Shown here: positions 33,938-57,748 of the stretch, piece after piece
Position numbering within the stretch: position 1 is the first letter of the stretch
How the letters are laid out: each line of letters starts with the position of its first letter
DNA from: an uncultured Holophagae bacterium
GTDB lineage: Bacteria > Acidobacteriota > Thermoanaerobaculia > Thermoanaerobaculales > Sulfomarinibacteraceae
Direction of reading: 5' to 3'
NCBI GenBank assembly: GCA_963710645.1
Contig: CAVQBD010000002.1
Span: 138,828 to 202,827, forward strand
Length of the DNA stretch: 64,000 nucleotides
Program-made: the position numbers and the translations under genes
The notes under the pieces: generated by a model
The model's input: the letters and a program-made list of their open reading frames with translations, nothing else
Database searches by the model: none
Told to the model about the DNA's origin: nothing

Positions 33938-35121
33938 GTCAGGCCGGTGTCGAGAGTCTGCAGCCGGCGCCGTCAAAGCCCGGTCTGCTGACTCCGTTCA
34001 ACGTGGTGTCGGGGATCATATTGATCGGTGGTGCGGCGATCCTGGCCCTCCGATTCATCAAGGGGTTGGAGGCGACGACCAACCTCACCGACACCTATCC
34101 GTGGGGGCTGTGGATCGGCTTCGATGTCATGAGTGGGGTCGCGCTGGCAGCCGGTGGCTTCGTCACTTCGACTGCCGTTTACCTCTTCGGCATGAAGGAG
34201 TACAAGCCCATCGTCCGGCCGGCGATCCTGACGGGATTCCTCGGTTATTTCCTGGTGGTCCTCGGGCTGCTTGCGGATCTCGGACGCCCCTGGCGCCTTC
34301 CCTATCCCTTTATCAAACAGGCGGGCCCGACCTCACCGTTATTCGAGGTGGCGCTCTGCGTGGCGTTGTACCTGACGGTGTTGTTCATCGAGACGACGCC
34401 GGCCGCGCTGGAGTGGCTCGGTCTGAAACGGTGGCGCAGGGTGGTGGGCAGCCTGACCATCGCGCTCACCGTTTTCGGCTTGATATTGTCCACCATGCAT
34501 CAGTCCACCCTCGGGGCCATGTACATGGCGGCGCCCACCAAGGTGCACCCGCTTTGGTACTCGGCCCACATGCCGGTGCACTTCTTCGTGTCGGCGGTGG
34601 CGGCGGGCATCGGCATGGTTATCGTGGAAGGGGCCATCTCCCACCGGGCCTTCCACCATCAAGTACAGATCACCCAGGATCAATTCAGGGATATCAACAT
34701 CGGACTGGCCAAGGCCGGTGCGGTGGCTCTGGCTGTCTATTTCGCCGTCAAGGTGGTCGGTCTCGCCATCGAGGACGAATGGGCGTTGTTGGGCACGGGC
34801 TGGGGTGCGTGGTTTCTTCTGGAGATCCTCGGTTTTGTTCTGCTGCCCTGCATCCTCTTTGCGGTTGCATACCGGGAAAGGAATGTGGTGCTGGCCCGAG
34901 TCGCGGGCGTCCTCACGGTTGTGGGCGTCGTCCTGAACAGATTCAATATCACGTTTGTCGTATTCAACTGGAATTACACGACCGAGCCCAGGTACTACCC
35001 GAACTGGATGGAGATCTGGGTGACCGTCGCGTTCATCACATTCGCGGTGGTGGTGTTCAAGTTGATCGCGAGCTACATGCCGATCATGTACGAACACCCC
35101 GACTGGAAAGGCGAGCACTGA
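33934..35121 (+). CDS. hmcC: HmcC-like NrfD/PsrC/DsrP-family integral membrane quinone-interacting subunit
   Basis: ATGA overlap with hmcB. 395 aa and polytopic, with the NrfD-type N-terminus ...TYPWGLWIGFDVMSGVALAAGGF. Confidence 0.8.
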   Translation: MSQAGVESLQPAPSKPGLLTPFNVVSGIILIGGAAILALRFIKGLEATTNLTDTYPWGLWIGFDVMSGVALAAGGFVTSTAVYLFGMKEYKPIVRPAILTGFLGYFLVVLGLLADLGRPWRLPYPFIKQAGPTSPLFEVALCVALYLTVLFIETTPAALEWLGLKRWRRVVGSLTIALTVFGLILSTMHQSTLGAMYMAAPTKVHPLWYSAHMPVHFFVSAVAAGIGMVIVEGAISHRAFHHQVQITQDQFRDINIGLAKAGAVALAVYFAVKVVGLAIEDEWALLGTGWGAWFLLEILGFVLLPCILFAVAYRERNVVLARVAGVLTVVGVVLNRFNITFVVFNWNYTTEPRYYPNWMEIWVTVAFITFAVVVFKLIASYMPIMYEHPDWKGEH

Positions 35122-35291: not shown

Positions 35292-35657
35292 ATGGGTCAC
35301 ACGGTTCTTGTGGTGGACGACGAGCCGGATGTCAGGACATTTCTGATGGCCGTGCTCAAAAAGAGGGGATACGAGACCTTGTCCGCCTCCGATGGCCGGG
35401 AGGCTTTCGAGGTCTTGCAGCGTGAGAAACCGGACTTGGTCATCCTGGACCTCCAAATGCCCAATCAGACCGGGACTGACTTTTTCCGCCGACTGACCAA
35501 GGACAAGGAACTCAGTCAGACGCCGGTGATCGTCGTCAGTGGACTTGCCGGACGCCACCTGGCCTTCAAGGAGCCGGTGGCTGTCTTTGATAAACCGATC
35601 GACCCCGACGAGTTCGGCGAAATGGTCGACAAAACCCTCGGCGTGGACGAGGGGTGA
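35292..35657 (+). CDS. Single-domain CheY-like response regulator
   Basis: VLVVDDEPDVR...DLVILDLQMPNQTG...VIVVSG...DKPIDPDEF. Confidence 0.9.
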   Translation: MGHTVLVVDDEPDVRTFLMAVLKKRGYETLSASDGREAFEVLQREKPDLVILDLQMPNQTGTDFFRRLTKDKELSQTPVIVVSGLAGRHLAFKEPVAVFDKPIDPDEFGEMVDKTLGVDEG

Positions 35658-35691
35658 CGGAGAGGGTCAACCCCTCGGAAGGGAGGCGACG

Positions 35692-36504
35692 ATGTCTCTT
35701 TTGGAGAAAAAGGACTATAAGCACGAGAACCCTCAGGTTCGACTCAAGGCGGTGGAAGAAATGAGTGACCCGGAGATGCTGGTCTCGGTGGCCTGCACAG
35801 ATGACTCTCCCCGGGTCCGGCTGACGGCCGTCGCAAAACTGAAGGACGATCAGACGCTGGAACGAATCGCCCGTGGCGCGGAGTCCCTCGATGCTCGTCT
35901 GGTTGCGGTGGAGAGGATCTTCTCGCAGGGGGTCATCGCTGACTTGTTGAAGGACCCCAAGAACTTCGAGCTCATGTCGGTGTGCTTTTCACGCATCAGC
36001 GATCGCCGCATCATCGAGTCCATCGCCCAGGACGAAGCCTACGGTGGGGTCGTCCGTCGGATGGCGGTGGAGTACTTTGCCGATTCGGGATACCTGGACG
36101 AGGTCGCGGAAGGCGCCGTGGCTGAGATTCCGGAGACCACAGCAGATCAGAGGGTGGAAGCATTTGTCGAAGTCTACGGTGGGGGCCTGCGGGGAGTCCG
36201 CGCCATCGGCCGATTCCGCCGTTCGGAAAAGGCCCTCAAGGCACTGGGGACAATCGCCCGCAAGGGTGGCGAGACAGGTGGACTGGCGATCGAATATCTG
36301 TGTTCGGCCCTGGCCAGCCCCAACCCCAAACTGGCTGACTGTGCTGCGGATGAACTCGGGGTTCTCAAGGATTCCGAGGCGGTGGACAGTTTGATCCGTG
36401 CGATGGACAATCCCAACCTGCGAGAGCCGGTTCGGCGCGTGCTTCGCAGGATCGGGACGCCTGAAGCCGTCGCCGCTCTCGGCGACGAATCGTGGATCAG
36501 CTAG
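35692..36504 (+). CDS. HEAT-repeat protein
   Basis: ATG 35692 follows a GGGAGG RBS. Repeated ...NPQVRLKAVEEM.., DDSPRVRLTAVAKL.., SLDARLVAVERI.. and NPNLREPVRRVLRRIG segments typical of PBS-lyase/HEAT-like repeats. Confidence 0.7.
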   Translation: MSLLEKKDYKHENPQVRLKAVEEMSDPEMLVSVACTDDSPRVRLTAVAKLKDDQTLERIARGAESLDARLVAVERIFSQGVIADLLKDPKNFELMSVCFSRISDRRIIESIAQDEAYGGVVRRMAVEYFADSGYLDEVAEGAVAEIPETTADQRVEAFVEVYGGGLRGVRAIGRFRRSEKALKALGTIARKGGETGGLAIEYLCSALASPNPKLADCAADELGVLKDSEAVDSLIRAMDNPNLREPVRRVLRRIGTPEAVAALGDESWIS

Positions 36505-36525
36505 ACCGCATGCAGGGAGAGCATC

Positions 36526-36900
36526 ATGGCGAAGAAAATTCTGATCATCGATGACGAGAAGGACATGCAGGTCTATCTCGGCACTCTGTTTCGGAAGGCG
36601 GGTTTCGAGACCAAGACCGCCTCAAATGGCGAGGAGGGCCTCAAGCTGGCCTTGACCTTCGAACCGGATCTCATCACGCTCGACGTGTTGATGCCGAAAC
36701 AGTCCGGGGTCAAGGCCTACCGAGGTCTCAGGACCTCCTCGCAGACCGCCTCGATTCCCATCGTCGTGCTGACCGGGCTCACCCGGCTGGATGACTTTTT
36801 TGGAGATCTCGGCGATTTGCGGAAACCGGACGCTCTGGTGGAGAAACCCATCGACCGGGACACCTTCCTGACCACGATCGAAGGACTCCTCAACGGCTGA
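36526..36900 (+). CDS. Single-domain CheY-like response regulator
   Basis: KILIIDDEKDMQ...DLITLDVLMPKQSG...IVVLTG...VEKPIDRDTF. Confidence 0.9.
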   Translation: MAKKILIIDDEKDMQVYLGTLFRKAGFETKTASNGEEGLKLALTFEPDLITLDVLMPKQSGVKAYRGLRTSSQTASIPIVVLTGLTRLDDFFGDLGDLRKPDALVEKPIDRDTFLTTIEGLLNG

Positions 36901-36983
36901 TTTTCTATCAGATAGCCCGGGGATTTTCGCGGGGCCGAAGACTGCGACCTCATCGTCGGCGTTGGGCCAACATCCGATCGTGG

Positions 36984-38510
36984 TCAACGAGCAACGGGCA
37001 AAACCACGGCAAACGTGCTGCCCTCGCCGACCTTGGATTCGACCTTGATCTCACCGCCGTGTTTCTGAATGATGCCGAGCGACACGGAAAGACCGAGCCC
37101 GGTCCCGCTGCCGCTCGATTTGGTGGTAAAAAAGGGATCGAAAATCGCTTTGAGTACGCGAGGCGACATTCCGGGGCCGGTGTCCCCGATGTAGATTGCG
37201 ACACATCCGGTGTCCAGGCTCACGTCACTGCTCAGGGTGAGTGTGCCCCCACTCTCCATTGCGTCGATCGCGTTGAGGATCAGATTGAGAAACACCTGGC
37301 TCAGATACTGCCGATCACCGTTGATCTCCGGCAGATCATCGGAGATGTCATAAACCTGCCTGACCCCGGAGAGTTTGAGCTGGTTGGACGCGAGTCTGAG
37401 TGCGTTTCCGACCACCTCGTCGAGGCTCAACCGTTCGGTCTTGATCTCGCTCTCGCGAGCGAAGTCGAGGAGATTTCGGACGATCTTACGGGCCCGCTCC
37501 GCCTGTTCTGATACGTCTCTGATCAACTCCTGTTTCTCGCCGTCTGGCAGGCTTTCGAAATCCTCCTCGAGAACCGCTGCGGTCAGCATGATGTTGTTGA
37601 TTGGGTTGTTGACCTCGTGGGCGATACCGGCGGTCAGGGATCCGACGGCTCGAAGCTTCTGGGACTGGAGGAGGAATTCCTCCCGGCGCACGAGTTCGCG
37701 GGTCATCCTGTTGATCGCGATCGCGAGATCGGTGAACTCGTCACGGGATTTTCGAACCGGCACGATCGGGGAAAAATCACCGGCCCCGATACGGCGTGCG
37801 GCGGCCATCAGAAGATCGAGGCGCAGCATGATATGGCGCCACATGAAGGTCGCCGCATAGACCGACAACGTGACCACCAGGAGCAGATAGACCGCGGGAA
37901 AGACCTTTGAAACAGCCAATAGCCTGCGAACGCTGTCGCGCTCCCTGTCGGCGACCTTCTGACCGCAGGAGACCAGGCCCGATCCGCAGTCTCGGAGCTC
38001 CTGGTCAAGCGCCTGACGGGAGGTTGACATCGCGGGTTCGCCGGACTGTTCGAGGTCACGAAGCTCGCCGATGAGCTCGCGGTAGTGTCGCAAATTTTTT
38101 TCGAGGAACTCGATACATTCGCCGCTCACCGAGACAGTGAGATCCTGCATTGACTGTTCCACGGCTGCTGCTGCGGCGTCGATGTGGTAGTCGACGTGCT
38201 GAAGGTCGCTGCCATAGAGCAAAAAGTTCTTCTCGAATCGCCGAGTTTGGAGAATCTCGTAGTTCAGCTGATCGGCGACACCGATCAAGGTGATTTTTCG
38301 CTCGATCCGGGACACCAGGACCCACGTTACGGCGGTGATCGCCACGGATCCGATGGCGAACAGGGCGAACATTGTGGCGAGTCGCATGCGGATACTAACC
38401 TTTGGGCGAGAGAGGAGGGTTCTTTCGGCCTCAGTGGTCGTCACCACACTGTGTTCGACGAGGTCGAACCCTCCGACAAGCGTTTCAGGGTTCTGCCCCG
38501 TATCCGTCAT
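36984..38510 (-). CDS. Membrane sensor histidine kinase (HAMP, HisKA, HATPase)
   Basis: Two TM segments flank a roughly 150-aa sensor region. H-box AGIAHEVNNPINNI, N-box LNLILNAIDA, and G-boxes GDTGPGM and GSGTGLGLSVS. Confidence 0.85.
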   Translation of the reverse strand: MTDTGQNPETLVGGFDLVEHSVVTTTEAERTLLSRPKVSIRMRLATMFALFAIGSVAITAVTWVLVSRIERKITLIGVADQLNYEILQTRRFEKNFLLYGSDLQHVDYHIDAAAAAVEQSMQDLTVSVSGECIEFLEKNLRHYRELIGELRDLEQSGEPAMSTSRQALDQELRDCGSGLVSCGQKVADRERDSVRRLLAVSKVFPAVYLLLVVTLSVYAATFMWRHIMLRLDLLMAAARRIGAGDFSPIVPVRKSRDEFTDLAIAINRMTRELVRREEFLLQSQKLRAVGSLTAGIAHEVNNPINNIMLTAAVLEEDFESLPDGEKQELIRDVSEQAERARKIVRNLLDFARESEIKTERLSLDEVVGNALRLASNQLKLSGVRQVYDISDDLPEINGDRQYLSQVFLNLILNAIDAMESGGTLTLSSDVSLDTGCVAIYIGDTGPGMSPRVLKAIFDPFFTTKSSGSGTGLGLSVSLGIIQKHGGEIKVESKVGEGSTFAVVLPVAR

Positions 38511-38553
38511 GATCCTCCGGTCTGCAGCGATGGAGTGTCCAGCGGTGCCACCT

Positions 38554-38934
38554 TCAGCGTTTCATTTCTTTGATCGCTCGCAGGATGATTTCGCGCAAAT
38601 CATCAGGCTTGAATGGTTTCGCAATGAAGTCGAAGGCACCGCGTGTGAGAGCCTCGCGCGCGACCTCCACCGTGGCGTAGCCGGTGATGAGGATCACCTT
38701 TGTGTGAGGCGACTTTTCGAGCACGTGCTCGAGCACTTCCATGCCGCTGAAGCCCTCCATCCGCACATCGGTCACGACGATGTCGAATGCCTTTTCCACC
38801 ACGCGCGCAACAGCCAGACGACTTTCCTGGAAGATCTCCACGTCATAGTCGGACTTCTCAAGCGCGGTCTTCAACCGCTTGCCAACAATTTCCTCGTCAT
38901 CGAGCACCAGAATCTGGATCTTCGGTTCGCTCAT
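38554..38934 (-). CDS. Single-domain CheY-like response regulator
   Basis: IQILVLDDEEIV...DIVVTDVRMEGFSG...VILITGY...FIAKPFKPDDL. Confidence 0.9.
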   Translation of the reverse strand: MSEPKIQILVLDDEEIVGKRLKTALEKSDYDVEIFQESRLAVARVVEKAFDIVVTDVRMEGFSGMEVLEHVLEKSPHTKVILITGYATVEVAREALTRGAFDFIAKPFKPDDLREIILRAIKEMKR

Positions 38935-38967
38935 CCGCTGCCTCCCGACCGCCCGGCACCGGGCCGT

Positions 38968-40062
38968 TCAGTTTTCGTTTGAAACAACCGCCGATTCCGC
39001 GAGCCGCCGCCGTATCGATGCCTGCCTGCGAAAAGCCTTGATGACGTTGAAAATAATCACCACAACGCCTGATACACCGGCAACAAAGAGCATACCCTTG
39101 CTGACGGCGTTCAATTGTCCGACCCAGACCTCATCAAAACTGACCAAGCCGAGTTGGCGGAGGTACACCGGTATGGCGACGCCGCGCGAGATGACGCAGA
39201 GCAGGATGACGATACTCGTCACCAACCGGATCACGACCTCTTTGACGACTTTAGTCCCGTAGGTACCGATGTAGATACCGATCAGAGACCCCAGGTACAG
39301 CAAGACCACCAAACGCACGTCGATGAACCCCTCGAGAACATAGTTCAGGGCTCCAAAGGCGCCCATGAACATGGCCAGAAAAAGTTCGGTCCCGGTGGCC
39401 ACGGCGGTCGGAACTCCAAAGACGTAGATCATCGCTGGAACGCCTATGAACCCTCCGACTCCGATAGTTCCGGCGAGGTACCCGGTGGCAAGCCCGACGA
39501 GGGCCAGCACCCACAGCGATACCTTCACGTCGGCCACCGGAAATTCAATCACCGGCGACAAACGCATACGTCCCAGTCTCTCGGCGATCTTCCGAGAAGG
39601 GCCCTCCTCCGCTCTGGATTTCACCACGTCCCGAAGCATGGAAATCGCAACCGCCGACAGAATACAGACAAAGACCAGACTGATGTACAGGTTGGCAGCC
39701 GCCCCCTTGCCGCCGCCGTGGGTGTCGGCGACCCCAAAGAGGGTGGCATTGATCCACACCGCGAGGCGGATTCCGACGAATGAGGTCGCGAGCAGGAAGA
39801 TGCCGAGTTTTTTGTCGACGTTGCCGAGTTCACCGTGTTTTCGAGATCCCATGAGGGCCTTGCCGAATTTGTGGGTGATATTGCTGCCGACGGCGATCAC
39901 GCCGGGAACACCCAGGTTCATCATTCCGGGGGTCATGAAGAATGCCCCACCGCTGCCGATGAAGCCACTGAGCACTCCGCCGATGAAACCGAGCAGAACC
40001 ACCTGGAGCGAGGTGCCGAGATCGAGAACGATGAAATCCTTGAATATCAGTTCTGGCATCAA
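38968..40062 (-). CDS. TauE/SafE-family (TSUP) anion exporter-like membrane protein
   Basis: 364 aa and polytopic. GG-rich helix motifs occur in both halves (GGVLSGFIGSGGAFFMTPGM... and ...GYLAGTIGVGGFIGVPAMIY). Confidence 0.7.
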   Translation of the reverse strand: MMPELIFKDFIVLDLGTSLQVVLLGFIGGVLSGFIGSGGAFFMTPGMMNLGVPGVIAVGSNITHKFGKALMGSRKHGELGNVDKKLGIFLLATSFVGIRLAVWINATLFGVADTHGGGKGAAANLYISLVFVCILSAVAISMLRDVVKSRAEEGPSRKIAERLGRMRLSPVIEFPVADVKVSLWVLALVGLATGYLAGTIGVGGFIGVPAMIYVFGVPTAVATGTELFLAMFMGAFGALNYVLEGFIDVRLVVLLYLGSLIGIYIGTYGTKVVKEVVIRLVTSIVILLCVISRGVAIPVYLRQLGLVSFDEVWVGQLNAVSKGMLFVAGVSGVVVIIFNVIKAFRRQASIRRRLAESAVVSNEN

Positions 40063-40134
40063 TCAACTTCCGGCCAGGGAATTTTGTCACCGCCGTTCGT
40101 CGCCATGGCGGTGGCTGCGCGGCCCAAGTCTTTG

Positions 40135-41664
40135 TCACTCCACATGGAACAACTTCAGGACGGTTCCGGCGAGCGTACCGTATATCACGGCGAAGACCGG
40201 CACAAAGACCAACAGAACCGCGGCGGCCACCACTTTTGCCCCGGCTGTCGCGGGTGAAAAAAACGCCAACATTTCGTACTGATGATCGAAGACCAGGAGG
40301 ACAACAGCGACCACGATGGCCGCCAGCGCAATCATCTTCGCGTAGTCGGACCAGCCGGTGTGAACCATCTGACCAAGATCCTCGGCGTTGACCACTGGCG
40401 CCTTGATGACATCTCCGAGCCGTCCTACCAGCTCTCTTGTCTTTCGGAGTCTCGTGGCGTGGCCGTGGTCCAGATATACGTCACCGACGACCACCAGACT
40501 GCAGGGAATCGATCGGTCAATGACCGCACCGATTCTCCCAACGTCAACCGGGAGTCGGCTTGCGCTGCCGGCGATTCCGCGAGCGTTCAATTCACCGATC
40601 ATCTCGCGCAGGTCGGCATCCTTCCCGGGTTGTCCAGGTGCGAGCTCCACATCCTCTTCGATCCCGCCGTCCACCTGGCGGACGTTGAACAACGGGAGAG
40701 GGTCGGCGTTCGCCGCACCGGCGTCAGTACTGTCTGTCACCGCCGAAAGCGAGGTGGCCGGGGTGAGAGTCACGAGCTCCACGGCCGAGTGCCAATGGGT
40801 CGCGGTCTTGACGACTGCCTCGAAGGTGGAACCCGTTGCCTGAAAACGCTCTTGCACCCACAGGATGTTGGTGGCCGCCATGGCGCAGGTCAGGTCTTTC
40901 ACACCCGGAATCGAACCGACGACCTCGGGCGCCCTGACGCCGACGGCCGCATCCTGCGGAAGAAAGGAGACCGCCACGAAGCCGGCCTCCGCCCTCACCG
41001 AGAATCTCGCCGCCCAGGTGCGTTCATCCCTGGCCAGGGCGATCCTTATCCGGGCGGCAAGCAACAGGTTCTCGAGCACCTTGATGGATGCAGGGAATGC
41101 CTGGAACTCTGGAAGTTGTGCATAATCGCATAGGGCCGTAGTGGCGCCTCCGACATCGACGCGATCGAGGTTGACGACCAGGTCATGCCCGGTCCACGGG
41201 TCCCCGCTCACGTTGTACATTGTCCGAATCCAACGTGCGATGTCCTCGTTCACGCTCTCCACATACTGCTTGGCTTTTGCGCGATCGAGGGACAATCGGC
41301 CCATGACCTCGGCGATGTGGGTGTCGGTGTCGATGGCCGTGCGGATGCGCAAGACGTGTGTCAAGCCCGGCGCCGCCAGATGAGCGGCTCGCCCGTGAAA
41401 CACCAGATCGTCCTCGATGGCGCGTTCGCACAGCACCCGCGTCATGAAGGCCAGAAAATGCTCTTTTTCCAGAATCTGCCGTTCACTCAACTGACGTCTC
41501 TTGACTGCTGCCGTTTCAAGTTTGCCGACGGCAATTCCGTCTCGGATAGCCAACTCGACAATGTCCTCCTGGCTGAGGCACCGGAAATCGAGTTTCTGGG
41601 CGAGGGTTTGAGCAAAGAGCTTGCCCTTCTCCTGCTCTCCCCGCGAGACACATACTATGCGCAC
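40135..41664 (-). CDS. Cytidylate-kinase-like (PF13189-type) / BON-like / membrane-anchored protein
   Basis: GTG start with a GGGGAGG RBS. The N-terminus MRIVCVSRGEQEKGKLFAQTLAQKLDF... has a degenerate P-loop, and the LTHVLRIRT...DIARWIRTMY...DLVVNLD pattern follows. A BON-like segment ends in GSIPGVKDL. Two TM helices lie at the C-terminus. Confidence 0.6.
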   Translation of the reverse strand: MRIVCVSRGEQEKGKLFAQTLAQKLDFRCLSQEDIVELAIRDGIAVGKLETAAVKRRQLSERQILEKEHFLAFMTRVLCERAIEDDLVFHGRAAHLAAPGLTHVLRIRTAIDTDTHIAEVMGRLSLDRAKAKQYVESVNEDIARWIRTMYNVSGDPWTGHDLVVNLDRVDVGGATTALCDYAQLPEFQAFPASIKVLENLLLAARIRIALARDERTWAARFSVRAEAGFVAVSFLPQDAAVGVRAPEVVGSIPGVKDLTCAMAATNILWVQERFQATGSTFEAVVKTATHWHSAVELVTLTPATSLSAVTDSTDAGAANADPLPLFNVRQVDGGIEEDVELAPGQPGKDADLREMIGELNARGIAGSASRLPVDVGRIGAVIDRSIPCSLVVVGDVYLDHGHATRLRKTRELVGRLGDVIKAPVVNAEDLGQMVHTGWSDYAKMIALAAIVVAVVLLVFDHQYEMLAFFSPATAGAKVVAAAVLLVFVPVFAVIYGTLAGTVLKLFHVE

Positions 41665-41808
41665 TCTCGAACCTCCCCGAGCGACTCCTTCACATCGAAA
41701 ATCAACAGCCCCTGCATGGCGACCCCATCGCTTTCTGTTCAGCCCAGCGGCTCGATTGTACTCCCGGTCGTGGGATTTCCCGCAACAGACAAATGGTTAG
41801 GCTGTGGC

Positions 41809-44800
41809 CTACCTATTCACCACCTCGATCAACGGACACGGACGTTCGTCGGTGCCCTCGTGGGCTTGTCCGTGAATTGCCTCGATCGCACGGGCGCGGG
41901 TCGGAAAGACCGACTCCCGGCCAATGGTCGCGAGACAGCCGGTCCGTTCGAGAATGTCGAAAATGTCATCCTTGAGACCGCTGATTGAAACCTGGTAACC
42001 GGCGCTTCGAAGATCCAGTACCAGGTCACCAAGGTCCTCCGCCGCGATCTCATCCACGGTCGAAAGACCGTGACACGCGAGCAGGATGTGGCGCGTCTCG
42101 GGGCGCGCGGCGACACGCGCCTTGATCTCGTGCGCGACGAAATCCACGGTCGCAAAATTGAGAGGCCCGTCGATCCGCATGGCTGCGATAAATCGGCAGA
42201 CGGCGAGACCATAGTGGTCGGCGTTGCGGAGCGATCCGTCCGCATGCATCGAAATCTCCACGACCCGAGGCAGGAGCGGCTGCATCGGGCAGTGCTCCTC
42301 AGAGTGTCCACGATGGGCCTCGGCGTACATGCTGGCCACTGCAGAGTCCGCGGTCGGGAAGATATTGTCCAACCCGATTTCGTCGGCAACACCCGACCGT
42401 CCGAGCTCCTCGAAAACGTGATCTCTGAAGCTGCAGAACGACACCGAAAAAGCCGCCTTTCTCAGGCGTTCCACCAACTCGCGAAGCCTTTGTGCGTCTT
42501 CCGAGCCGTGTCGTTCAAGGGTGTGAGCGACAAACAAAATGTGAGTCACCTCAAGCCGATTCTTGACCCACTTGGTGAGCTCCAACTCCAGAGCCGCCGG
42601 GTTGGCGAGAATCAACGGTCCATCGAAGCGAAGGGCCGCGATGTGAGAACACAGTCCAAGGCCGTGCCGTCGAGCTTCGCGCAAACTCCCGTCAGGATGC
42701 AAGGAAAGTTCGGTGACACGGGGCGCCATGGGCTGGAACGGGCAGTTCGGCTCGCTCGATTCGGCGTGCGCCTGCGAGCACAGGGCGGCGATCGCTGCGA
42801 ATTGGGTGGGGAAGCGGTGATTTGAGCCGATGACCTGGTCAGTGTCAATCCGGTCGAGGACCTCCAGGACTTCATCCCGGAAGCCCGAGAACGACACGCC
42901 CAAACCCTGCTCGCGGAGACGGTTGACGACCTGAACGAGCTTCTGCGCCCCGGACGGATCGACCTCCGCAATACCGTGGGCGACGAATATGACCTGTCGC
43001 AGCTCCGATCTCCCCTCCAATTTCAGGAGGATCTCCTGCTCGAGGAAATCCGTGTTGGCATAGGTGAGCGGATCGTCGAAGCGGAGGACTGCCATGTGCC
43101 GGCACAACTGGAGGTCATGGCGTACAGCATCGCGAAGCGAACCGTCGGGATGGACCGAGAGTTCCGCGAGTCGGGGCATCACCGATCGATAGGGGCAACC
43201 CGGCTCGGGATCAGTGTGGGCCGAGGCGTAGATCGCAGCGATGGCCTGGGCCTGAGTGGGGAACTGGTGGTCCCCGCCGAGGACATCGTAGAGGTGGGAC
43301 CGTTTGAGCACGTCGACGACCTGGTCCTTGAGGCCGCAGAAAGAGACGTCGTACTTCGCCTCCCGCAAGTGCTCCACCAGGTGGCGCAACATTTCCTCAC
43401 CCGAGGCGTCGACCTCGTTGATGCCCTCGGCCACGACCAGGACGTGCTTGAGATCCGGCATCTTGGAGACCCGATCGAGCACCTCGTCCTCGAGGTAGGA
43501 GGCGTTGGCGAAGTTCAGCGGGCCGTCGAACCGTATTGCGGCCAGGTACCGGCATTGCTCGAGGCCATGCCTCCTGGCGTCCTTCAAACCGCCCTCCGAA
43601 TGGGGGGCCAATACGGCCACGCTGGGACGCATCGTACGGAAGAGGTACCCGCCAAGCGACAGGGTCACCCCGATCAGGATCCCCCACTCGAGGTGCGGCG
43701 CAAGAATGAGAGTGCACACGAAGGTCACGACCGACACGAAACCGTCGAATGGTTGGGTCCGCCAAGCATGGACAAAACCACTCACGTTGAGCAGGCCGAA
43801 TACGGCCATCATGATGATCGACGCCAGCACCGCCTGTGGCAGGTTGTAGAGCATGGGTGAGAAAAAGAGCAGGACGATCGCGACGATCAACCCGGAGAAG
43901 ACGTTGGACATGCCGGTGCGCGCTCCCGCCTGCAGGTTGACGGCCGAGCGCGAGAACGATCCCGAGACGGCATAGCTCTGACCCATGCAGCCAACGATGT
44001 TTGCCAACCCCTGACCGATCAGCTCCTGGTTCGGGTCGAGCTTCTGCTTTGTCTTGGCGGCCATCGCTTTGGCGATCGAGATCGCTTCCATGAATCCGAG
44101 GATGGAGATGATGATCGCTGCGGCGATGAGCTTGGGTATGACCTGGAAGTCGATGACGGGCGGACTGATTGGCGGGAGGCCGGCGGGGATTGTCCCGACC
44201 ACAGCCCCTCCTCCTGTCATCATCAAATTCTCTTGATCGATGGCGACGTTGCCCACCTTGATCCGCCATGTGCCAGGTTCCACCTCGAGATCCTGGGCCG
44301 ACTCACCCCGCACGATGAATTGGGGCTCACCCTTTGCATCGACGGCGCGCTGGAAGCGGTAGCCTCTCAGCTCGGTTCGAACATCCGACACGTGGTGTTT
44401 GAGTTCCTCGATCCGAATGTCGATCAAGCCTGCCATTTGGTGAAGGGCCAGCGTCCTGCGCTCGAAATCGCCCGCCACAGCCGGACCACCGCCTGACCCA
44501 AACCCCGTCGCCGAGCGCAGCGCGTGGCAACCCATGCACTGAGTGACGAGATCGCTGTTCTGGTCGTCGAGGAGGACGTTCCCGGAGGCCCTCGCTTCCT
44601 CCAAGAGTCGCTCCTCGAGCACGGCGTCGTTGAACTCAGTGATCTGCTCTTTCACTTTTTCGGATTCGATCTGGTTGCCCTGGACGTTCTCGTTCCTTTC
44701 AAATCCGAGCGTTGCGGCAAGCGCGGTGGTTACGACAACTGCCACCAGCACATTCGGGATCCGGGGGTTGAGTCGCCTCAACGTGATCATGATTGCGAAC

Positions 44801-45414
44801 GACAAGATTGCCATCGCGAGCGTTGGAAGGTGGGTGTAGTGGAGGGCGGCCTCGAAGACCCGGTAGATGGTCCCGTAGTGATGTTCCGCCTTGTCTACAT
44901 AGACGCCGAAGATTTTCGACAATTGGGACGTTGCGATGATCAGGGCGGCGGCATTGGTGAAGCCGTTGACCACCGGATGGGAGAGGAAATTGACAATCAG
45001 GCCGAGGCGAAGGATGCCAAGGGCGAGCTGGAAAACGCCCACCATCAACGCCAGCAAAATGGCGTAGGCGATGTACTGCTGGCCGCCTGCAGTGGCGAGT
45101 GGCTCGAGTGCGGCGGCGGTCATCAGCGACACCACCGCAACAGGTCCCGTCGCCAACTGCCGGCTCGAGCCGAAGAGGTTGGCTACGATGGGCGGCAGAA
45201 AGGCCGCATAGAGCCCGTAGTAGGCCGGCAGCCCGGCCAGCTGCGCATACGCCATCGACTGGGGAACGAGAACGAGGGCTACCGTGAGCCCTGCGATGAA
45301 GTCACTTCTGAGAGTCGAGGCGTCATAGCCCTGGAACCATGTGAGAAATGGGAAAAGGCGTCGCAGGATGGTCATATCCCAGATACTCCAAGCTTTCGGA
45401 GTATACGACAGCAC
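41809..45414 (-). CDS. SulP/SLC26-family anion transporter with an inserted soluble loop and four tandem C-terminal STAS domains
   Basis: SulP signature region (LRSDFIAGLTVALVLVPQSMAYAQLAGLP...). There is a roughly 165-aa non-membrane insertion (residues about 239-404) before the VVGTIPAGLPP motif. Four roughly 150-aa STAS-like repeats occupy residues about 600-1201. Confidence 0.85.
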   Translation of the reverse strand: MLSYTPKAWSIWDMTILRRLFPFLTWFQGYDASTLRSDFIAGLTVALVLVPQSMAYAQLAGLPAYYGLYAAFLPPIVANLFGSSRQLATGPVAVVSLMTAAALEPLATAGGQQYIAYAILLALMVGVFQLALGILRLGLIVNFLSHPVVNGFTNAAALIIATSQLSKIFGVYVDKAEHHYGTIYRVFEAALHYTHLPTLAMAILSFAIMITLRRLNPRIPNVLVAVVVTTALAATLGFERNENVQGNQIESEKVKEQITEFNDAVLEERLLEEARASGNVLLDDQNSDLVTQCMGCHALRSATGFGSGGGPAVAGDFERRTLALHQMAGLIDIRIEELKHHVSDVRTELRGYRFQRAVDAKGEPQFIVRGESAQDLEVEPGTWRIKVGNVAIDQENLMMTGGGAVVGTIPAGLPPISPPVIDFQVIPKLIAAAIIISILGFMEAISIAKAMAAKTKQKLDPNQELIGQGLANIVGCMGQSYAVSGSFSRSAVNLQAGARTGMSNVFSGLIVAIVLLFFSPMLYNLPQAVLASIIMMAVFGLLNVSGFVHAWRTQPFDGFVSVVTFVCTLILAPHLEWGILIGVTLSLGGYLFRTMRPSVAVLAPHSEGGLKDARRHGLEQCRYLAAIRFDGPLNFANASYLEDEVLDRVSKMPDLKHVLVVAEGINEVDASGEEMLRHLVEHLREAKYDVSFCGLKDQVVDVLKRSHLYDVLGGDHQFPTQAQAIAAIYASAHTDPEPGCPYRSVMPRLAELSVHPDGSLRDAVRHDLQLCRHMAVLRFDDPLTYANTDFLEQEILLKLEGRSELRQVIFVAHGIAEVDPSGAQKLVQVVNRLREQGLGVSFSGFRDEVLEVLDRIDTDQVIGSNHRFPTQFAAIAALCSQAHAESSEPNCPFQPMAPRVTELSLHPDGSLREARRHGLGLCSHIAALRFDGPLILANPAALELELTKWVKNRLEVTHILFVAHTLERHGSEDAQRLRELVERLRKAAFSVSFCSFRDHVFEELGRSGVADEIGLDNIFPTADSAVASMYAEAHRGHSEEHCPMQPLLPRVVEISMHADGSLRNADHYGLAVCRFIAAMRIDGPLNFATVDFVAHEIKARVAARPETRHILLACHGLSTVDEIAAEDLGDLVLDLRSAGYQVSISGLKDDIFDILERTGCLATIGRESVFPTRARAIEAIHGQAHEGTDERPCPLIEVVNR

Positions 45415-45541
45415 TTCCTTTATGCGATGTCGGATGGAGAATCAGACAAGATCATGCGACAGTTTGACAGCCGAGATGGCGACTGACAGAATTCTGGTGC
45501 CTGCGATGTGATGTCGGGGCTTGAGCCGAGGGGGTCGAAAC

Positions 45542-46767
45542 GTGGCGATCATTACGATCGACAGTGCGACGTTCTGCCACGGGCCGGAGGTGGCATCTTC
45601 AGTGGCCGACCGTCTGAAACTGGACCGCCTCGAGGACGACGCGGTCTTTGCGGCCGCCGCCGCCGTCGCCGGTATGGATGCAGCCAAGCTGGTCCGTATC
45701 GTCTACGGTCCGGCGCCCATTTTCCCGGTCGGGGTGCGTGACACGGCGAAGGCAGTCGCCGCCCTCCGCGTCGCCTTGATCGAGGTCATCAGCGCGGATC
45801 AGCTGGTGTACCACGGTCTCCTCGGTCGGCTGCTTCCCCAAAAGCTGTCTCATGTGCTGCGAGTGTGCTTGGCAGGCGACACCGATTTTCGAATCGGGGA
45901 GGCGGACAGGCAGGGAGTTCCGCCCGGGAGGCGAAACGCCGCATCAAGGCCGACGACGACGCGCGGGCGGACTGGATCGACCTCGTGGTTGGTATGGGCC
46001 CATGGGACACGAGCATGTACGACATTTTCGTGGCCATGGACAAGACGTCTCTCGAAGGTGCGGTCGAGTTGGTCTGTGATCACGCGACTCGGCCGCTTCT
46101 GGATCTGACTCGAGCGGGCGAACGCGCCCTGGCCGAAGCTCGCCTTTCAGCGGAGGTCAATCTCGAACTCGCCCGCGAGGGCCACGACGTCGACGTGGTG
46201 TGCGACGATTCTCGGGCCACCATTTTGATCAAGAAGGAAAGCGTATTCAGGGACCGGCAGCGGAAGGAGTTCGAGAAAATTGCCCTCGGTGTCGAGGGGG
46301 TGTCTGCCGTCGAGGTCCGGCGTGGACCGCGCTTCAAGGAGCCGGACATATCATTCAAGATCGACCTCGACGTGCCGTCAAAGGTGCTGTTGGTCGATGA
46401 CGAGCAGGAGTTCGTCAACACCCTGTCCGAGCGGCTCGAGACCCGGAGCATGACGCCGGCAATCGCCTACGACGGCGAAGAGGCTCTGGCGATGGTCGCC
46501 GACGATCAGCCGGAGGTGATGGTGCTCGACCTCAAAATGCCGGGCATCGACGGCCTCGAGGTGCTGCGCAGAATGAAGAAGAGCCACCCCGAAACCCAGG
46601 TCATCATCCTCACAGGGCATGGTTCGGCGGCGGAGGAGGAATTGGCCGCCGAACTTGGCGCCTTTGCATACCTGCGCAAGCCGGTGGACATCGAGGAACT
46701 CACGGCGACAATGAGAAAAGCGTATCGTGAGATCGAGGCGCGACGCGAAGGACGCGACGACGACTGA
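45542..46767 (+). pseudogene. Cytidylate-kinase-like / BON-like / receiver-domain protein split by a frame change near 45900 (pseudogene, assembly indel or recoding)
   Basis: ORF 45521..46108 carries the N-terminal half of the kinase-like domain (...LSHVLRVCLAGDTDFRI). The continuation (SAREAKRRIKADDDARADWI...YDIFVAMD..., a BON-like segment, then a full receiver VLLVDDEQ...MVLDLKMPGIDG...ILTGHG...LRKPVD) is in the -1 frame (ORF 45865..46767). Colinearity with the paralog at 40135..41664 spans the junction. Confidence 0.7.
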
Positions 46768-46771
46768 GAAA

Positions 46772-48505
<1,734 letters not shown>

Positions 48506-48510
48506 ATTGA

Positions 48511-48894
48511 ATGAGTCGTCTTCGAGTCTTGTTCGTCGACGATGAAGAGGAGTTCGTATCGGCGGTCGTCGAACGACTCCAACTTCGAGGGATCGAAGCC
48601 ACAGGTGCGATAACTGGTGCAGAGGCTCTCGATCTGATCGACCGGGAAACCTACGACGTCGTCGCGGCCGATGTGAAGATGCCGGGGCTCGGAGGGCTCG
48701 AGATCGTCCGGCGCATCAAGGATCGACATCCCGGGCTGCAGGTGATTCTGCTGAGCGGTCACGGCTCGCGAGATGATGCCGAGGAGGGGCGTCGGCTCGG
48801 TGCCTGCGATTACTTGGAAAAACCCATCGACATCGAGATTCTGATAGAAATCTTGCGCAAGGCTGCCGCGTCGGCAGGGCCGGTGGTCCGGTGA
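48511..48894 (+). CDS. Single-domain CheY-like response regulator
   Basis: RVLFVDDEEEF...DVVAADVKMPGLGG...VILLSGHG...YLEKPIDIEIL. Confidence 0.9.
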   Translation: MSRLRVLFVDDEEEFVSAVVERLQLRGIEATGAITGAEALDLIDRETYDVVAADVKMPGLGGLEIVRRIKDRHPGLQVILLSGHGSRDDAEEGRRLGACDYLEKPIDIEILIEILRKAAASAGPVVR

Positions 48895-49613
48895 CCGACT
48901 CCGATTCCTCTCGAAAACGGGATGAGGGCCTTGCTTTCTTCGGCACGATGATCGCCGGACAATCCCACGAGCTCACCAACGTCCTCAATATCATCAAGGA
49001 GTTGGCCGGCCTGCAACACGATCTTCTGGAGGCAGGAAACACCGGGCGCCCCGTCGATCTTTCGAGGATTCAGGAGGTCGCATGCAGGATCCAAAACCAG
49101 GTCATGCGGGGCGACACGATCATTCGCAACCTCAACCATTTTGCTCACAGCGTCGACCTGCCGACGGCGGTATTCGATCTCAGGGAGGCGATTGAAAGGG
49201 TTGTGTTCTTCGCCGAGCGGTCGGCCCGGCTGGCCCGGGTCGAGTTGAGTCCGGACCTGCCGGAGGAATCGATGGCCCTCGAGAACAACCCGTTCAGCCT
49301 CCAGCAGGCGTTGTTCATTTGCATCGATCTTGCTCTGCAGTCCGCCACTGACGAACGAAAGGTGACCGTGGATTACAGCGTCTGCGAAGACGGGGCGAAG
49401 ATCCGGATCAACTCGGCCGACAGGCTGGCCAACGATGGTCTCGTCGCCGAGAAACTGGGGTTCCTCAGGCTGTTGCTGTCGGACCTTGGCGGGGTCCTCC
49501 TCAGGGGTCCTGGAGAGGAGCCGTACAACGCGATCGTTTTCAAAATCGGGCTGCACCGGGGCGAGCCATCCGGGCGGCTCGGATCGGCCCGAAGCTCAGG
49601 GGAAGAGAATTGA
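48891..49613 (+). CDS. Soluble histidine-kinase-like protein with a DHp/H-box but a degenerate ATPase domain
   Basis: GTGA overlap with the upstream gene. The H-box-like IAGQSHELTNVLNIIKELAG aligns with AGVAHEINNPLAII of the neighbouring kinase. The downstream region has no recognisable N, G1 or G2 boxes. Confidence 0.55.
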   Translation: MTDSDSSRKRDEGLAFFGTMIAGQSHELTNVLNIIKELAGLQHDLLEAGNTGRPVDLSRIQEVACRIQNQVMRGDTIIRNLNHFAHSVDLPTAVFDLREAIERVVFFAERSARLARVELSPDLPEESMALENNPFSLQQALFICIDLALQSATDERKVTVDYSVCEDGAKIRINSADRLANDGLVAEKLGFLRLLLSDLGGVLLRGPGEEPYNAIVFKIGLHRGEPSGRLGSARSSGEEN

Positions 49614-49668
49614 TACAGTGCGGACACCGGAACCGGCGGCCGGTGACGGCGGGTCGGAATGGAGGCGG

Positions 49669-50103
49669 ATGATGCGCGTCGAGAGCGTGTTGTTGGTTGA
49701 TGACGAAGTGGAGTTTGTTCAGACACTTGCAGAACGCATGCAGGCACGGGGACTGGCCGTCGAGTACGTCACCAACGGCCACGATGCCATCGAATCGGCG
49801 AGATCCAAGACCTACGATGCGGTGGTCCTCGATTTGGCCATGCCTGGAATGAACGGTCTCGAGACCCTCAAGATCCTCCTCCGAGATCATCCCGGCCTCC
49901 AGATCATGCTTCTCACCGGGCAGGCCACCGTTGGCGATGCCGTCGAGGCAACAAAGATCGGGGCGGTGGACGTCTTCGAAAAACCCACCGACATCGAGAC
50001 CCTGGTGGAGAAGATCCGCGAAGCCAGGAAAGCGCGACTCGCCCTGGAGGAGCAACACGCCCTCGATGAGATCGACAAGATCATGTCCACCAAGGGTTGG
50101 TGA
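49669..50103 (+). CDS. CheY-like response regulator with a short C-terminal helical tail
   Basis: ATG 49669 or 49672 follows GGAGG. VLLVDDEVEF...AVVLDLAMPGMNG...LLTGQA...VFEKPTDIETL. Confidence 0.85.
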   Translation: MMRVESVLLVDDEVEFVQTLAERMQARGLAVEYVTNGHDAIESARSKTYDAVVLDLAMPGMNGLETLKILLRDHPGLQIMLLTGQATVGDAVEATKIGAVDVFEKPTDIETLVEKIREARKARLALEEQHALDEIDKIMSTKGW

Positions 50104-50218
50104 GATATTCAGGCTGGCTAGCTCATATTGCGCGCGGAAAAGCGGTCCGGGTTTTCTGATTTTCCAAGCAGCATCAGGACGTCCCCTTCGCCGAAACGAG
50201 TATCGGCCGGAGGCGCAT

Positions 50219-52282: not shown

Positions 52283-52304
52283 GGGGCAAGTCTACGCCCT
52301 TCAG

Positions 52305-52748
52305 TCACCGGTTGCGGCGCCACTCGCGCCACGCACGCCAAGCATGGCGCGAGGAGAGGAGCAGCGCCACTCCAACTGCGATATAGACCGCGCCGACGAT
52401 GCCACGCGTGACCGCGCCACGCAGCAGGCGGCCGGCAGCGATCATCACAATGACCAACGCCCAGGTGCTCAGCGAGAGGAAGCCACCGAGACATCGGCCG
52501 TCGCCGCGGGCACGGATTCGTTCGACGACCTTCCGCGCCGCACGATCGAGCACCAGCTGTGACTTGATCGCACCGACGACGACCGCGCCGGCCGCGATCC
52601 ACGGCGCGGCCGCGGGTGCCGCCCCCCACAGCCACCGAACTCCGAAGCCCGCCAGGGCCGCCCCCACCACCGCCCACATGAGCCACGCCAACATCAGGTG
52701 GGTCGGTACCGACGCCGCCGGTTTGTGGTTTTCTGCCCAATGGGTCAA
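52305..52748 (-). CDS. Hypothetical small membrane protein (about 4 TM)
   Basis: 147-aa ORF located 22 nt upstream of the ClC gene on the same strand, with hydrophobic helices. No family was recognised. Confidence 0.5.
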   Translation of the reverse strand: MTHWAENHKPAASVPTHLMLAWLMWAVVGAALAGFGVRWLWGAAPAAAPWIAAGAVVVGAIKSQLVLDRAARKVVERIRARGDGRCLGGFLSLSTWALVIVMIAAGRLLRGAVTRGIVGAVYIAVGVALLLSSRHAWRAWREWRRNR

Positions 52749-57720: not shown

Positions 57721-57748
57721 GCCGTGAGCGGCCCACCCACCCGCCCAG

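Follow-up and report, generated by a model that had tools for sequence, protein, structure and literature searches.

We analyzed a 64,000-nucleotide stretch of the genome of an uncultured Holophagae bacterium of the Sulfomarinibacteraceae (contig CAVQBD010000002.1, positions 138,828–202,827; hereafter, the window), in which six response regulator receiver domains (RR1–RR6) and several histidine kinases (HKs) are crowded around genes for a redox complex and membrane transporters. The whole is best explained, in our judgment with moderate confidence, as two independent signaling systems adjoined by an insertion. System 1 (29.4–36.9 kb and 54.6–56.0 kb) comprises an Hmc-type redox complex, RR1 and RR2 on either side of a HEAT-repeat protein, and a PAS-domain kinase. 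System 2, carried by the inserted DNA, would be a phosphorelay without DNA-binding outputs that acts on a SulP-family transporter with four STAS domains.

A 17.7-kb insertion adjoins two signaling systems

A preliminary description of the window had treated the receivers, kinases, and transporters between 35.2 and 50.1 kb as a single signaling island, a view that comparison with related genomes does not support. A contig of 85–89% nucleotide identity (L025) matches positions 35470–36900 and 54612–55562 in blastn searches with only 27 nt between the two matches, and we therefore consider 36901–54611 to be an inserted block. The block is bounded precisely by the RR2 stop codon on one side and that of the PAS kinase on the other, and the corresponding gap in relatives measures 27 nt in L025, approximately 75 nt in L026, and no more than approximately 260 nt in the others. 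The order NrfD–RR1–HEAT–RR2 followed by the convergent PAS kinase occurs in 24–30 contigs without the SulP block, and the block itself has a different neighborhood in L015, the contig with its closest relative. Beyond the PAS kinase, L044 carries a gene for a 336-aa protein of unknown function and then dsrAB, and the same genes are found in the window at 56761–57771 and 62174–63998.

No terminal repeats, tRNA genes, Rfam families, or integrase genes were detected at the block borders. Promoter and terminator scans gave results at background level, except for one sigma-70-like site (10/12) at 45464–45492, upstream of the plus-strand operon. A gene for an rve-family, insertion sequence (IS)-type integrase lies at 58228–59109 (+), 3.6 kb beyond the block, past the PAS-kinase region and before dsrAB, and suggests that the genome is plastic here. 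The idea that the block is a mobile defense or IS cargo island was rejected, as such genes are absent inside it.

RR1, RR2, and a HEAT-repeat protein accompany an Hmc-type complex

To the left of the insertion, the NrfD–RR1–HEAT–RR2 order, preceded by the HmcB-like gene, is kept in more than 30 metagenome contigs, as tblastn with the window proteins shows. A metagenome scan for the HEAT-repeat protein found 36 related loci at 56–89% identity, and these relatives are flanked by RR1 and RR2 orthologs wherever the contig reaches that far. The gene directly 3′ of RR2, in convergent orientation, is in at least 24 contigs an ortholog of the PAS kinase (58–92% identical) and not of either kinase within the block. 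This kinase is probably the cognate partner of the two receivers, and it stands far from RR2 in this genome because insertion of the 17,711-bp block has separated them. The PAS kinase would probably phosphorylate both receivers, which would in turn act through the HEAT-repeat protein as a scaffold.

The gene order of the redox complex itself is the same in L044 and approximately 20 other contigs. It shares HmcA, Fe-S, and NrfD subunits with the classical Hmc complex and differs from the hmcABCDEF arrangement in that the E/F-like genes come first. The hmc operon of Desulfovibrio vulgaris is followed by the rrf1/rrf2 regulator genes. The likeness lies in the presence of a response regulator gene after an Hmc-type operon; here, however, two receivers without outputs flank a HEAT-repeat protein and are joined by a PAS kinase, and an Rrf2-type DNA-binding protein is absent. 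The Hmc-linked module is conserved and looks like an ordinary two-component accessory system. The PAS domain of the displaced kinase holds the motif C-x3-C-x6-C-x2-C (CYEVCKKRTSKCPNC), a cysteine cluster that may represent an Fe-S or metal redox sensor for the module.

Six intact receivers and their kinases

With Pfam Response_reg (PF00072; cut-off 30.2 bits), the six receivers score 64–98 bits (Table 1). Alignment with CheY and Spo0F identified in each of them the acidic pair, the acceptor Asp, the Thr/Ser, and the Lys (CheY D12/D13, D57, T87, and K109), the last two motifs having also been inspected in the translations. Other than the Cytidylate_kin2 domain fused to RR4, no Pfam-recognized DNA-binding or enzymatic output was found on the six receivers, and a Pfam scan of the block proteins, covering all but one possible open reading frame (ORF) at approximately 53.6–54.5 kb, detected no DNA-binding domain. 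The preliminary description had thus been correct in counting six receiver domains without a DNA-binding output. Neither of the two conditions that it named as refuting applies, as the acceptor Asp residues are present and the orthologous clusters are not random associations. Its positions for the TauE, SulP, HEAT-repeat, and nearby Hmc genes are upheld by Pfam and NCBIfam assignments. A hidden Markov model built from the receivers found eight receivers in the whole window, six of them inside 15 kb; the two others belong to proteins encoded at 3374–4861 (+) and 6759–7658 (−). Identity as chemotaxis CheY proteins was rejected because che genes are absent.

Two of the kinases announced in the preliminary description, now called HK1 and HK2, are what it took them to be, with HAMP-HisKA-HATPase_c and dCache_1-HisKA-HATPase_c architectures, respectively; it had counted three in the island, and the third is the PAS kinase outside it. 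HK1 and HK2, whose cores are 37% identical, pass both Pfam kinase models and retain intact N, G1, and G2 boxes (NLILNA/NILNNA, DTGPG/DDGKG, and GTGLGL). HK1 has a periplasmic loop of approximately 135 aa in addition to its HAMP domain, and its true start may alternatively be Met42 at 38387.

Kinase–receiver specificity was examined by motif comparison, the roughly six complete sets of genes available being too few for statistical covariation. RR4, RR5, and RR6 are paralogs, 36–47% identical in alignment. Their alpha1 helices carry a conserved signature specific to RR5 (DDEEELVSAVVERL) and a signature common to RR4 and RR6 (DDExEFVxTLxERL). RR1 and RR2 are 34% identical to one another, and their alpha1 helices are unlike those of the other receivers. 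RR6 additionally has a conserved C-terminal helix of approximately 25 aa and measures 143–144 aa in all orthologs examined. In the dimerization and histidine phosphotransfer (DHp) region, the residues below the His of HK2 (HEINNPLAIINEKAGL) resemble those of the neighboring kinase-like protein (HELTNVLNIIxELAGL); those of HK1 and the PAS kinase differ.

Table 1. Features of the window discussed in the text (TM, transmembrane; positions counted from the first nucleotide of the window)
Feature	Position	Strand or location	Basis or remark
NarI-like subunit	29370–30017	5′ of HmcA	Pfam Nitrate_red_gam
CCG/Fe-S subunit	30060–31379	5′ of HmcA	Pfam CCG
HmcA 16-heme cytochrome	31383–32903	+	NCBIfam HmcA equivalog, 468 bits (cut-off 400)
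HmcB-like Fe-S protein	within ORF 32279–33937	+	Pfam Fer4_11
NrfD/HmcC-like membrane protein	33934–35121	+	Pfam NrfD
RR1, stand-alone receiver	35292–35657	+	Response_reg, 80 bits
HEAT-repeat protein, 270 aa, between RR1 and RR2	35692–36504	+	HEAT_2, 41 bits
RR2, stand-alone receiver	36526–36900	+	Response_reg, 64 bits; insertion begins after its stop codon
Inserted block, 17,711 bp	36901–54611		Absent from close relatives; carries System 2
HK1, two-TM HAMP-HisKA-HATPase_c kinase, last gene of SulP operon	36984–38510	−	Pfam
RR3, stand-alone receiver	38554–38934	−	Response_reg, 98 bits
TauE/TSUP-family membrane protein (anion exporter family)	38968–40062	−	TauE, 129 bits
Cytidylate_kin2 protein, 509 aa	40135–41664	−	PF13189, 61.5 bits (threshold 28); missed by the preliminary description
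SulP/SLC26 transporter, 1188 aa	41809–45375	−	TIGR00815, 544 bits (cut-off 380); Sulfate_transp, 359 bits
Four tandem STAS units, approximately 150 aa each	41809–43650	−	Pfam STAS, four stretches
SulP insertion, approximately 160 aa, between TM7 and TM8	44200–44688	−	Unmatched in alignment to AtSULTR4;1 and prestin
Cytidylate_kin2::middle domain::receiver (RR4), first gene of relay operon	45542–46767	+	PF13189, 33.9 bits, and PF00072
RR4, receiver of the fused protein	ends 46767	+	Response_reg, 96 bits
HK2, two-TM kinase, periplasmic dCache_1 sensor-HisKA-HATPase_c	46772–48505	+	Pfam
RR5, stand-alone receiver	48511–48894	+	Response_reg, 90 bits
Degenerate kinase core, 240 aa	48891–49613	+	GTG start overlapping RR5 stop codon
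RR6, receiver with C-terminal helix	49669–50103	+	Response_reg, 92 bits
CLC channel/antiporter with CBS and TrkA_C domains	50219–52282	−	Voltage_CLC, 364 bits; inside block
PAS-HisKA-HATPase_c kinase	54616–56049	−	Pfam
dsrA and start of dsrB	62174–63998	+	83–85% identical to L044

A signaling cassette is conserved beside multi-STAS SulP genes

The plus-strand genes of the block form a five-gene cassette encoding a Cytidylate_kin2::receiver fusion, a dCache kinase, a receiver, a His-containing degenerate kinase core, and a second receiver. We compared nine independent genomic contexts of multi-STAS SulP genes (L015, L016, L017/18, L019/20, L021, L022, L060, L061, and L062), and in seven of them the cassette, or most of it, flanks the transporter. 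L015, in which SulP is 75% identical to that of the window, keeps the whole block: one side reads CLC, RR6, kinase-like protein, RR5, dCache kinase, and Cytidylate_kin2::receiver, and the divergent side reads SulP, a TM-bearing Cytidylate_kin2 protein, TauE, RR3, and, 3′ of RR3, the HK1 ortholog. RR3 therefore lies within the SulP operon in both genomes. In L016, L017/18, L019/20, L021, L060, and L061, whose SulP proteins are 52–59% identical to ours, the dCache kinase, receiver, kinase-like, receiver cassette or most of it directly adjoins SulP; it is incomplete in L021, which lacks RR6, and in L016, which lacks a called kinase. HK2 orthologs of 564–577 aa occupy the same position in L015, L017, L019, L021, L060, and L061, and L015, L019/20, L021, and L060, four of the seven contexts with the cassette, also have the Cytidylate_kin2::receiver fusion. 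At least nine further short contigs (12–37 kb) hold a multi-STAS SulP together with Cytidylate_kin2::receiver, as judged by matching contig sizes across two search listings. The relay gene that adjoins SulP in the other genomes, at the L016, L017, L019, L023, L060, and L061 positions, is RR6, which in the window and in L015 stands at the far end of the divergent operon.

Annotations of metagenome-assembled genomes (MAGs) and proteins assign these cassettes to Acidobacteriota (close relatives of L015), Planctomycetota (L060), and Pseudomonadota (L061); L016, L017, L019, and L021 have no taxonomic label. Close relatives of several of the organism's proteins are annotated as Acidobacteriota or Thermoanaerobaculales.

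Gene fusions also link members of the system. In the Planctomycetota MAG L060, a single 349-aa protein unites an RR5-like receiver (57% identical) with the kinase-like protein (34% identical, His conserved). In L023, a SulP protein with four STAS units (P0072) runs into a receiver with 62% identity to RR3 and is followed by a gene for an RR6-like receiver, also 62% identical.

These data bear on the simplest alternative, that the clustering is meaningless: orphan CheY-like receivers would serve distant partners or the chemotaxis or transcription machinery, with the transporters as unrelated neighbors. Rearrangement did juxtapose two systems in this genome, and an IS-type integrase lies nearby; against this, the internal gene order of each module is kept across many unrelated contigs from several phyla, and three independent gene fusions unite System 2 members. 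Synteny and fusions largely refute this explanation, which we consider very improbable.

Other signaling genes recur near related transporters. Genes encoding an HdrD-like Fe-S/CCG protein fused to a receiver (L021, 5577–7337; L022, 17135–18928), accompanied by a PAS kinase, a stand-alone receiver, and a Macro-domain protein, are found near 3-STAS and 6-STAS SulP genes. In L017 (1–9860), beside a 4-STAS SulP, another arrangement of transporter and signaling genes that uses PF13189 comprises a Cytidylate_kin2-BON-CBS protein, a PPDK_N/PEP-utilizer protein, a dCache-PAS kinase, a receiver, and two genes of the Na/sulfate symporter family.

A degenerate kinase core with an invariant histidine

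The cassette includes a 240-aa protein that the preliminary description had labeled DHp-only. It proves to be a full kinase core, with a DHp region and a domain resembling the catalytic and ATP-binding (CA) domain, in which the ATP-binding motifs are degenerate. The protein is 27% identical to the core of HK2 (E = 2e-14), and a profile of 30 homologs matches the solved kinase cores of ThkA, ZraS, and FixL over the DHp and CA regions. Its AlphaFold model (pLDDT 89) consists of a helical hairpin and an alpha/beta domain, with HK853, EnvZ (chimeras), DivL, and RetS as the top Foldseek matches. The hairpin carries the motif H-E-L-T-N, of which His26 and Asn30 are invariant in the 30 homologs and Glu27 is nearly so (invariant in 26 close homologs). 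Features expected of a class I kinase are lacking, with Leu in place of the N-box Asn and no G1 box, G2 box, or ATP lid.

A DHp hairpin with a conserved His, together with a Bergerat-like domain without ATP motifs, is what the sequence and the AlphaFold model show in common with phosphotransferases of the ChpT/Spo0B type, and we propose on these grounds that the protein is a histidine phosphotransferase (HPt). Pfam scans of the family found no match to HATPase_c, HPTransfase, or SPOB_a/SPOB_ab and a weak HisKA match in 9 of 26 members. Without a match to the HPTransfase and SPOB families, the protein looks like an independent derivative of the neighboring kinase, an analog of ChpT and Spo0B and not a member of their families.

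A precedent is ChpT, which adopts the fold of a class I kinase, with a phosphorylatable His33 in its DHp domain and an atypical Bergerat domain without ATP lid or ATP binding (PMC3433190), and all features of ChpT (PDB 4FPP/4FMT) that can be checked in sequence and fold are present in the 240-aa protein. In the CckA-ChpT-CtrA/CpdR relay of Caulobacter, ChpT serves the single-domain receiver CpdR (PMC3433190), and single-domain receivers are found here too. The 240-aa protein differs in being a recent paralog of the adjacent AtoS/ZraS-type kinase and no sequence member of the ChpT family, and the upstream receiver is a separate protein (or, in L060, fused to the putative phosphotransferase) rather than part of a hybrid kinase. 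The steps proposed below are also those of the Bacillus Spo0 relay (KinA-Spo0F-Spo0B-Spo0A), namely a separate kinase, a stand-alone receiver, a dimeric kinase-core-like His phosphotransferase without ATP binding, and a terminal receiver, and a structural comparison of the RR4 receiver places Spo0F receivers among its best matches. Unlike in the Spo0 relay, the terminal receivers here are without a DNA-binding domain, SPOB_a/SPOB_ab matches are absent, and the genes lie in one operon adjoining a transporter, with two or three candidate terminal acceptors. Finally, in PhyT/SdrG-type relays of the alphaproteobacterial general stress response, a kinase-like phosphotransferase is likewise paired with a single-domain receiver intermediate (PMC5898713); these end in PhyR and sigma-factor partner switching, whereas sigma and anti-sigma components are absent here.

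SulP proteins with tandem STAS units and a predicted periplasmic CxxCH motif

The transporter at the center of System 2, identical to P0001, combines a 14-TM core with a predicted periplasmic insertion and four tandem STAS units; the preliminary description had recognized a SulP protein, and the number of its STAS domains is here corrected from one to four. Protein searches found more than 100 clusters of SulP homologs with 3–6 STAS units and lengths of approximately 1045, 1190, 1350, and 1500 aa, with MAG annotations to Acidobacteriota, Deltaproteobacteria, Planctomycetota, Pseudomonadota, and Polyangia. In a repeat alignment, each STAS unit has a conserved Cys near its start and ends with A-H-x(5-8)-C-P, and the number of these motifs equals the number of STAS units (3–6) in nearly all of 120 homologs. 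This Cys/His motif may be a metal or redox site.

The insertion between TM7 and TM8 contains CMGCH at 44524–44538 (−), checked in translation. CxxCH occurs at that position in 118 of the 120 best homologs, the two exceptions being shorter proteins of 843 and 860 aa that are probably fragments without the N-terminal part, and the homolog alignment shows an invariant His approximately 45 aa downstream of the motif as well as an invariant Trp. By homology with solved SLC26 structures, the insertion is predicted to be periplasmic. In AtSULTR4;1, both Glu347 and Lys353 lie on TM8, and the latter touches the STAS domain in the cytosol (PMC8298490), which would place the segment preceding TM8 on the outer side; the positively charged TM6–TM7 loop (RRLNPR) agrees with this orientation. 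Among 1.84 billion representative proteins, the insertion alone matches only SulP-type proteins, the longer of them at the same position, and short fragments; no stand-alone cytochrome relatives were found among these representatives, and no Pfam family was assigned. A scan of genome contigs with SulP gave only 1-STAS relatives from Rhodocyclaceae; the segment is specific to the clade, as these relatives have a shorter insertion without it. HmcA shows that the organism makes c-type cytochromes, which makes a periplasmic heme c site plausible, and we consider the CxxCH insertion a plausible candidate for such a site.

The proteins thus share a 14-TM core and a cytoplasmic STAS domain with one-STAS SulP/SLC26 transporters such as DauA, BicA, Rv1739c, SLC26Dg, and AtSULTR4;1, from which they differ by their 3–6 tandem STAS units, the approximately 160-aa insertion with its invariant CxxCH, and the conserved linkage to phosphorelay genes. 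The STAS fold is common also to the partner-switching proteins SpoIIAA and RsbV; STAS1 and STAS2 keep D-x-S-G at the position of SpoIIAA Ser58, whereas STAS3 and STAS4 lack the Ser. A partner switch of the SpoIIAA type was rejected because the block genes scanned with Pfam include no SpoIIAB/RsbW-type Ser kinase, PP2C phosphatase, or sigma factor.

The transported anion is probably sulfate or a similar sulfur oxyanion. One hint is that the TM8 Glu of AtSULTR4;1 is conserved in our SulP. The dsrAB genes in the window provide another; they indicate that the organism possesses dissimilatory sulfite reductase, and marine Acidobacteriota lineages bearing dsrAB have been described (PMC8528874). In L062 (3579–13501), a gene for a 3-STAS SulP homolog stands by genes for sirohaem synthase-like, ATP sulfurylase (sat), Qmo-like, and AprA-like proteins, and these sulfate-metabolism neighbors hint at sulfate. 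TauE is present in L015 and adjoins 1-STAS SulP relatives in Rhodocyclaceae. One further 1-STAS locus (L006, 4719–16876) contains genes for a cNMP (cyclic nucleotide)-binding protein, an OmpR-type response regulator, a histidine kinase, TauE, an unknown 179-aa protein, SulP (48% identical, without CxxCH), DabB, and DabA; as this relative also has TauE, the TauE–SulP pairing would be older than the multi-STAS clade. The CLC gene of the block likewise adjoins the system in L015.

Cytidylate_kin2 domains in both operons

The receiver fusion reported in the preliminary description is real; its identity can be refined to Cytidylate_kin2::receiver. The family comprises more than 120 clusters of approximately 408 aa, a conserved fusion in which intact orthologs carry PF13189 and PF00072, and the AlphaFold model of the ortholog P0169 (pLDDT 87) has three domains. 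In the window, PF13189 is split over two reading frames by a frameshift of approximately 1 nt near 45905–45912, where runs of G and C abound. The change of frame is evident from tblastn with intact orthologs of 407–411 aa, and the deposited annotation calls just the 300-aa C-terminal part (P0223); the gene is either a real pseudogene or the product of an assembly error.

A second PF13189 protein, of 509 aa, is encoded in the SulP operon and has an ortholog in L015. Its N-terminal PF13189 domain is followed by approximately 300 aa without a family match and two C-terminal TM helices, and the protein has no NCBIfam match. A phmmer search of the PDB with the Cytidylate_kin2 domain gave only a weak match to 3HDT, a structural-genomics "putative kinase." Neither protein has a Walker A motif of the form GxxxxGK[ST]: the RR4 family reads IDSATFCHGPE in this position, without the Lys and Thr, and the 509-aa protein reads GEQEKGKL, with Leu replacing Ser/Thr. 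The alignment of Cytidylate_kin2::receiver proteins (domain at 45542–45900 in the window) contains two invariant cysteines, Cys12 at the P-loop position and Cys109, which suggests a ligand- or redox-sensing domain rather than an active kinase.

A proposed phosphorelay onto the STAS array

We propose that System 2 consists of two divergent operons around the SulP transporter with its four cytoplasmic STAS domains. In the plus-strand operon, the periplasmic dCache kinase HK2 would autophosphorylate and transfer the phosphoryl group to the stand-alone receiver RR5, from which it would pass to His26 of the 240-aa kinase-core paralog, acting in the manner of ChpT or Spo0B, and onward to RR6 and Cytidylate_kin2::RR4 as terminal receivers. 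The minus-strand operon, with SulP, the membrane-anchored Cytidylate_kin2 protein, and TauE, would hold a second, insulated pair in which HK1 phosphorylates RR3. Phosphorylated receivers, RR3 above all and perhaps RR6 and RR4, would dock onto the STAS array and, acting post-translationally, gate anion transport or tune it.

Several lines of evidence are consistent with this scheme. The gene order HK-RR-HPt-RR mirrors the order of transfer, RR5 being separated from the gene before it by 6 nt and overlapping the next by 4 nt (GTGA), and the kinase-like protein combines an invariant His with lost ATP-binding motifs. The paralogy of RR4, RR5, and RR6, the alpha1 signature peculiar to RR5, and the resemblance of the kinase-like protein to HK2 in its core and below the His fit the scheme as well. 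Direct transfer from RR5 to this His is suggested by the RR5-like::kinase-like fusion of L060. As DNA-binding domains are absent from the block proteins scanned, the outputs are most plausibly protein–protein contacts. That the STAS array is their target is suggested by the adjacency of RR6 to SulP and by the SulP::RR3-like fusion, and RR3 is likely to be a direct partner of the SulP STAS tail. Of the ideas in the preliminary description, a multi-step or branched phosphorelay is accordingly the best reading for HK2, RR5, the degenerate kinase core, RR6, and Cytidylate_kin2::RR4, although not for the region as a whole. Similarly, its suggestion that receivers regulate transporter STAS domains gains from the synteny in seven of nine contexts and the SulP-4xSTAS::receiver fusion, whereas an action of the SulP-side receivers on Hmc is unsupported.

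A number of observations weigh against the scheme. The order of the relay is one that we infer from gene order, one fusion, and motif similarity, and the SulP::receiver fusion P0072, seen once on a MAG contig of 4.7 kb, could be an artifact of assembly or gene calling. The cassette was not found beside the multi-STAS SulP genes of L022 and L062 within the DNA span covered. The frameshift in the RR4 gene may render one proposed terminal acceptor non-functional in this genome. The 1-STAS relative that stands beside DabAB inorganic-carbon genes means that the substrate, too, may differ.

Other points concern the kinase-like protein. The sequence H-E-x-x-N with invariant Asn is the HisKA phosphatase motif, and the H-E-L-T-N of the 240-aa protein, with its invariant Asn30 and nearly invariant Glu27, fits it; the protein could thus be a dedicated phosphatase. 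The pseudokinases RetS and DivL, moreover, are among its fold matches. The principal rival to the relay therefore makes this protein a negative regulator, either a phosphatase for phosphorylated RR5, RR6, and RR4 or a RetS-like pseudokinase that heterodimerizes with HK2 and blocks it, in a one-step system with one kinase serving three receivers and this protein supplying a sink or a brake. The resemblance of its DHp region to that of HK2 would permit heterodimers, and HK2 could serve RR4, RR5, and RR6 equally, given the similarity of their alpha1 helices. A phosphatase or inhibitor, however, needs no strictly invariant His; the receiver::kinase-like fusion in L060 resembles relay architectures; the order HK-RR-X-RR is conserved in MAGs of several phyla; and the distinct, highly conserved alpha1 signature of RR5 suggests a special role for this receiver. 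We consider a negative regulator unlikely and favor a phosphotransferase in this position.

The direction of control between transporter and relay might also be reversed. SulP would then be a sensor, or transceptor: the STAS array would read out its transport state and its periplasmic CxxCH domain and recruit or modulate kinases and receivers, with the output elsewhere, for example in Cytidylate_kin2, TauE, or CLC. The invariance of CxxCH in the periplasmic insertion is in keeping with such a role, 3–6 STAS units could serve as a scaffold, and the RR4 receiver could control its own N-terminal Cytidylate_kin2 and middle domains. There is also a precedent: the SulP protein DauA is a signal transducer with DctA and DcuS in two-component signaling (PMC5703999). 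Yet HK2, through dCache, and HK1, through its periplasmic loop and HAMP domain, have periplasmic sensor domains of their own, and the receiver is attached to the transporter in P0072, the usual layout of a regulated output. We find this sensor role less probable still than a negative regulator in the relay, and retain SulP as the target of the phosphorylated receivers.

Discussion

The region offers a caution that a striking density of receivers can come from a rearrangement joining two unrelated modules. Multi-step phosphorelays, ChpT/Spo0B-like phosphotransferases, single-domain receivers, and STAS-bearing SulP transporters are already known kinds of components. What appears new is their combination: a relay dedicated to a transporter and without transcriptional output, found in MAGs of several phyla, together with 3–6 STAS units, an invariant and predicted periplasmic CxxCH, and a Cytidylate_kin2::receiver fusion. 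Literature searches on tandem-STAS SulP proteins, SulP with CxxCH, PF13189 function, and SulP with two-component systems turned up no description of this system, and its features are unmentioned in a comparative study of sulfate transporters in sulfate reducers.

The output of single-domain receivers and the role of prokaryotic STAS domains in SLC26 transporters are both poorly understood. In this compact and conserved locus, a relay is genetically tied, and rarely fused, to one transporter, and both questions could be addressed with a few purified proteins. We advance more tentatively, as a possibility that is on balance doubtful, the view that multi-STAS SulP proteins form an unrecognized class of SLC26 transporter or transceptor, with covalent periplasmic c-type heme and an array of 3–6 STAS units that docks a dedicated His-Asp-His-Asp relay. 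If this were true, anaerobes would possess a direct, post-translational link from redox or ligand sensing in the periplasm to two-component phosphorylation and the transport of sulfur oxyanions. Were the CxxCH motif to bind heme, these proteins would to our knowledge be the first heme-bearing SLC26 transporters, which would suggest redox control of sulfate and sulfite traffic in uncultured sulfur-cycling bacteria.

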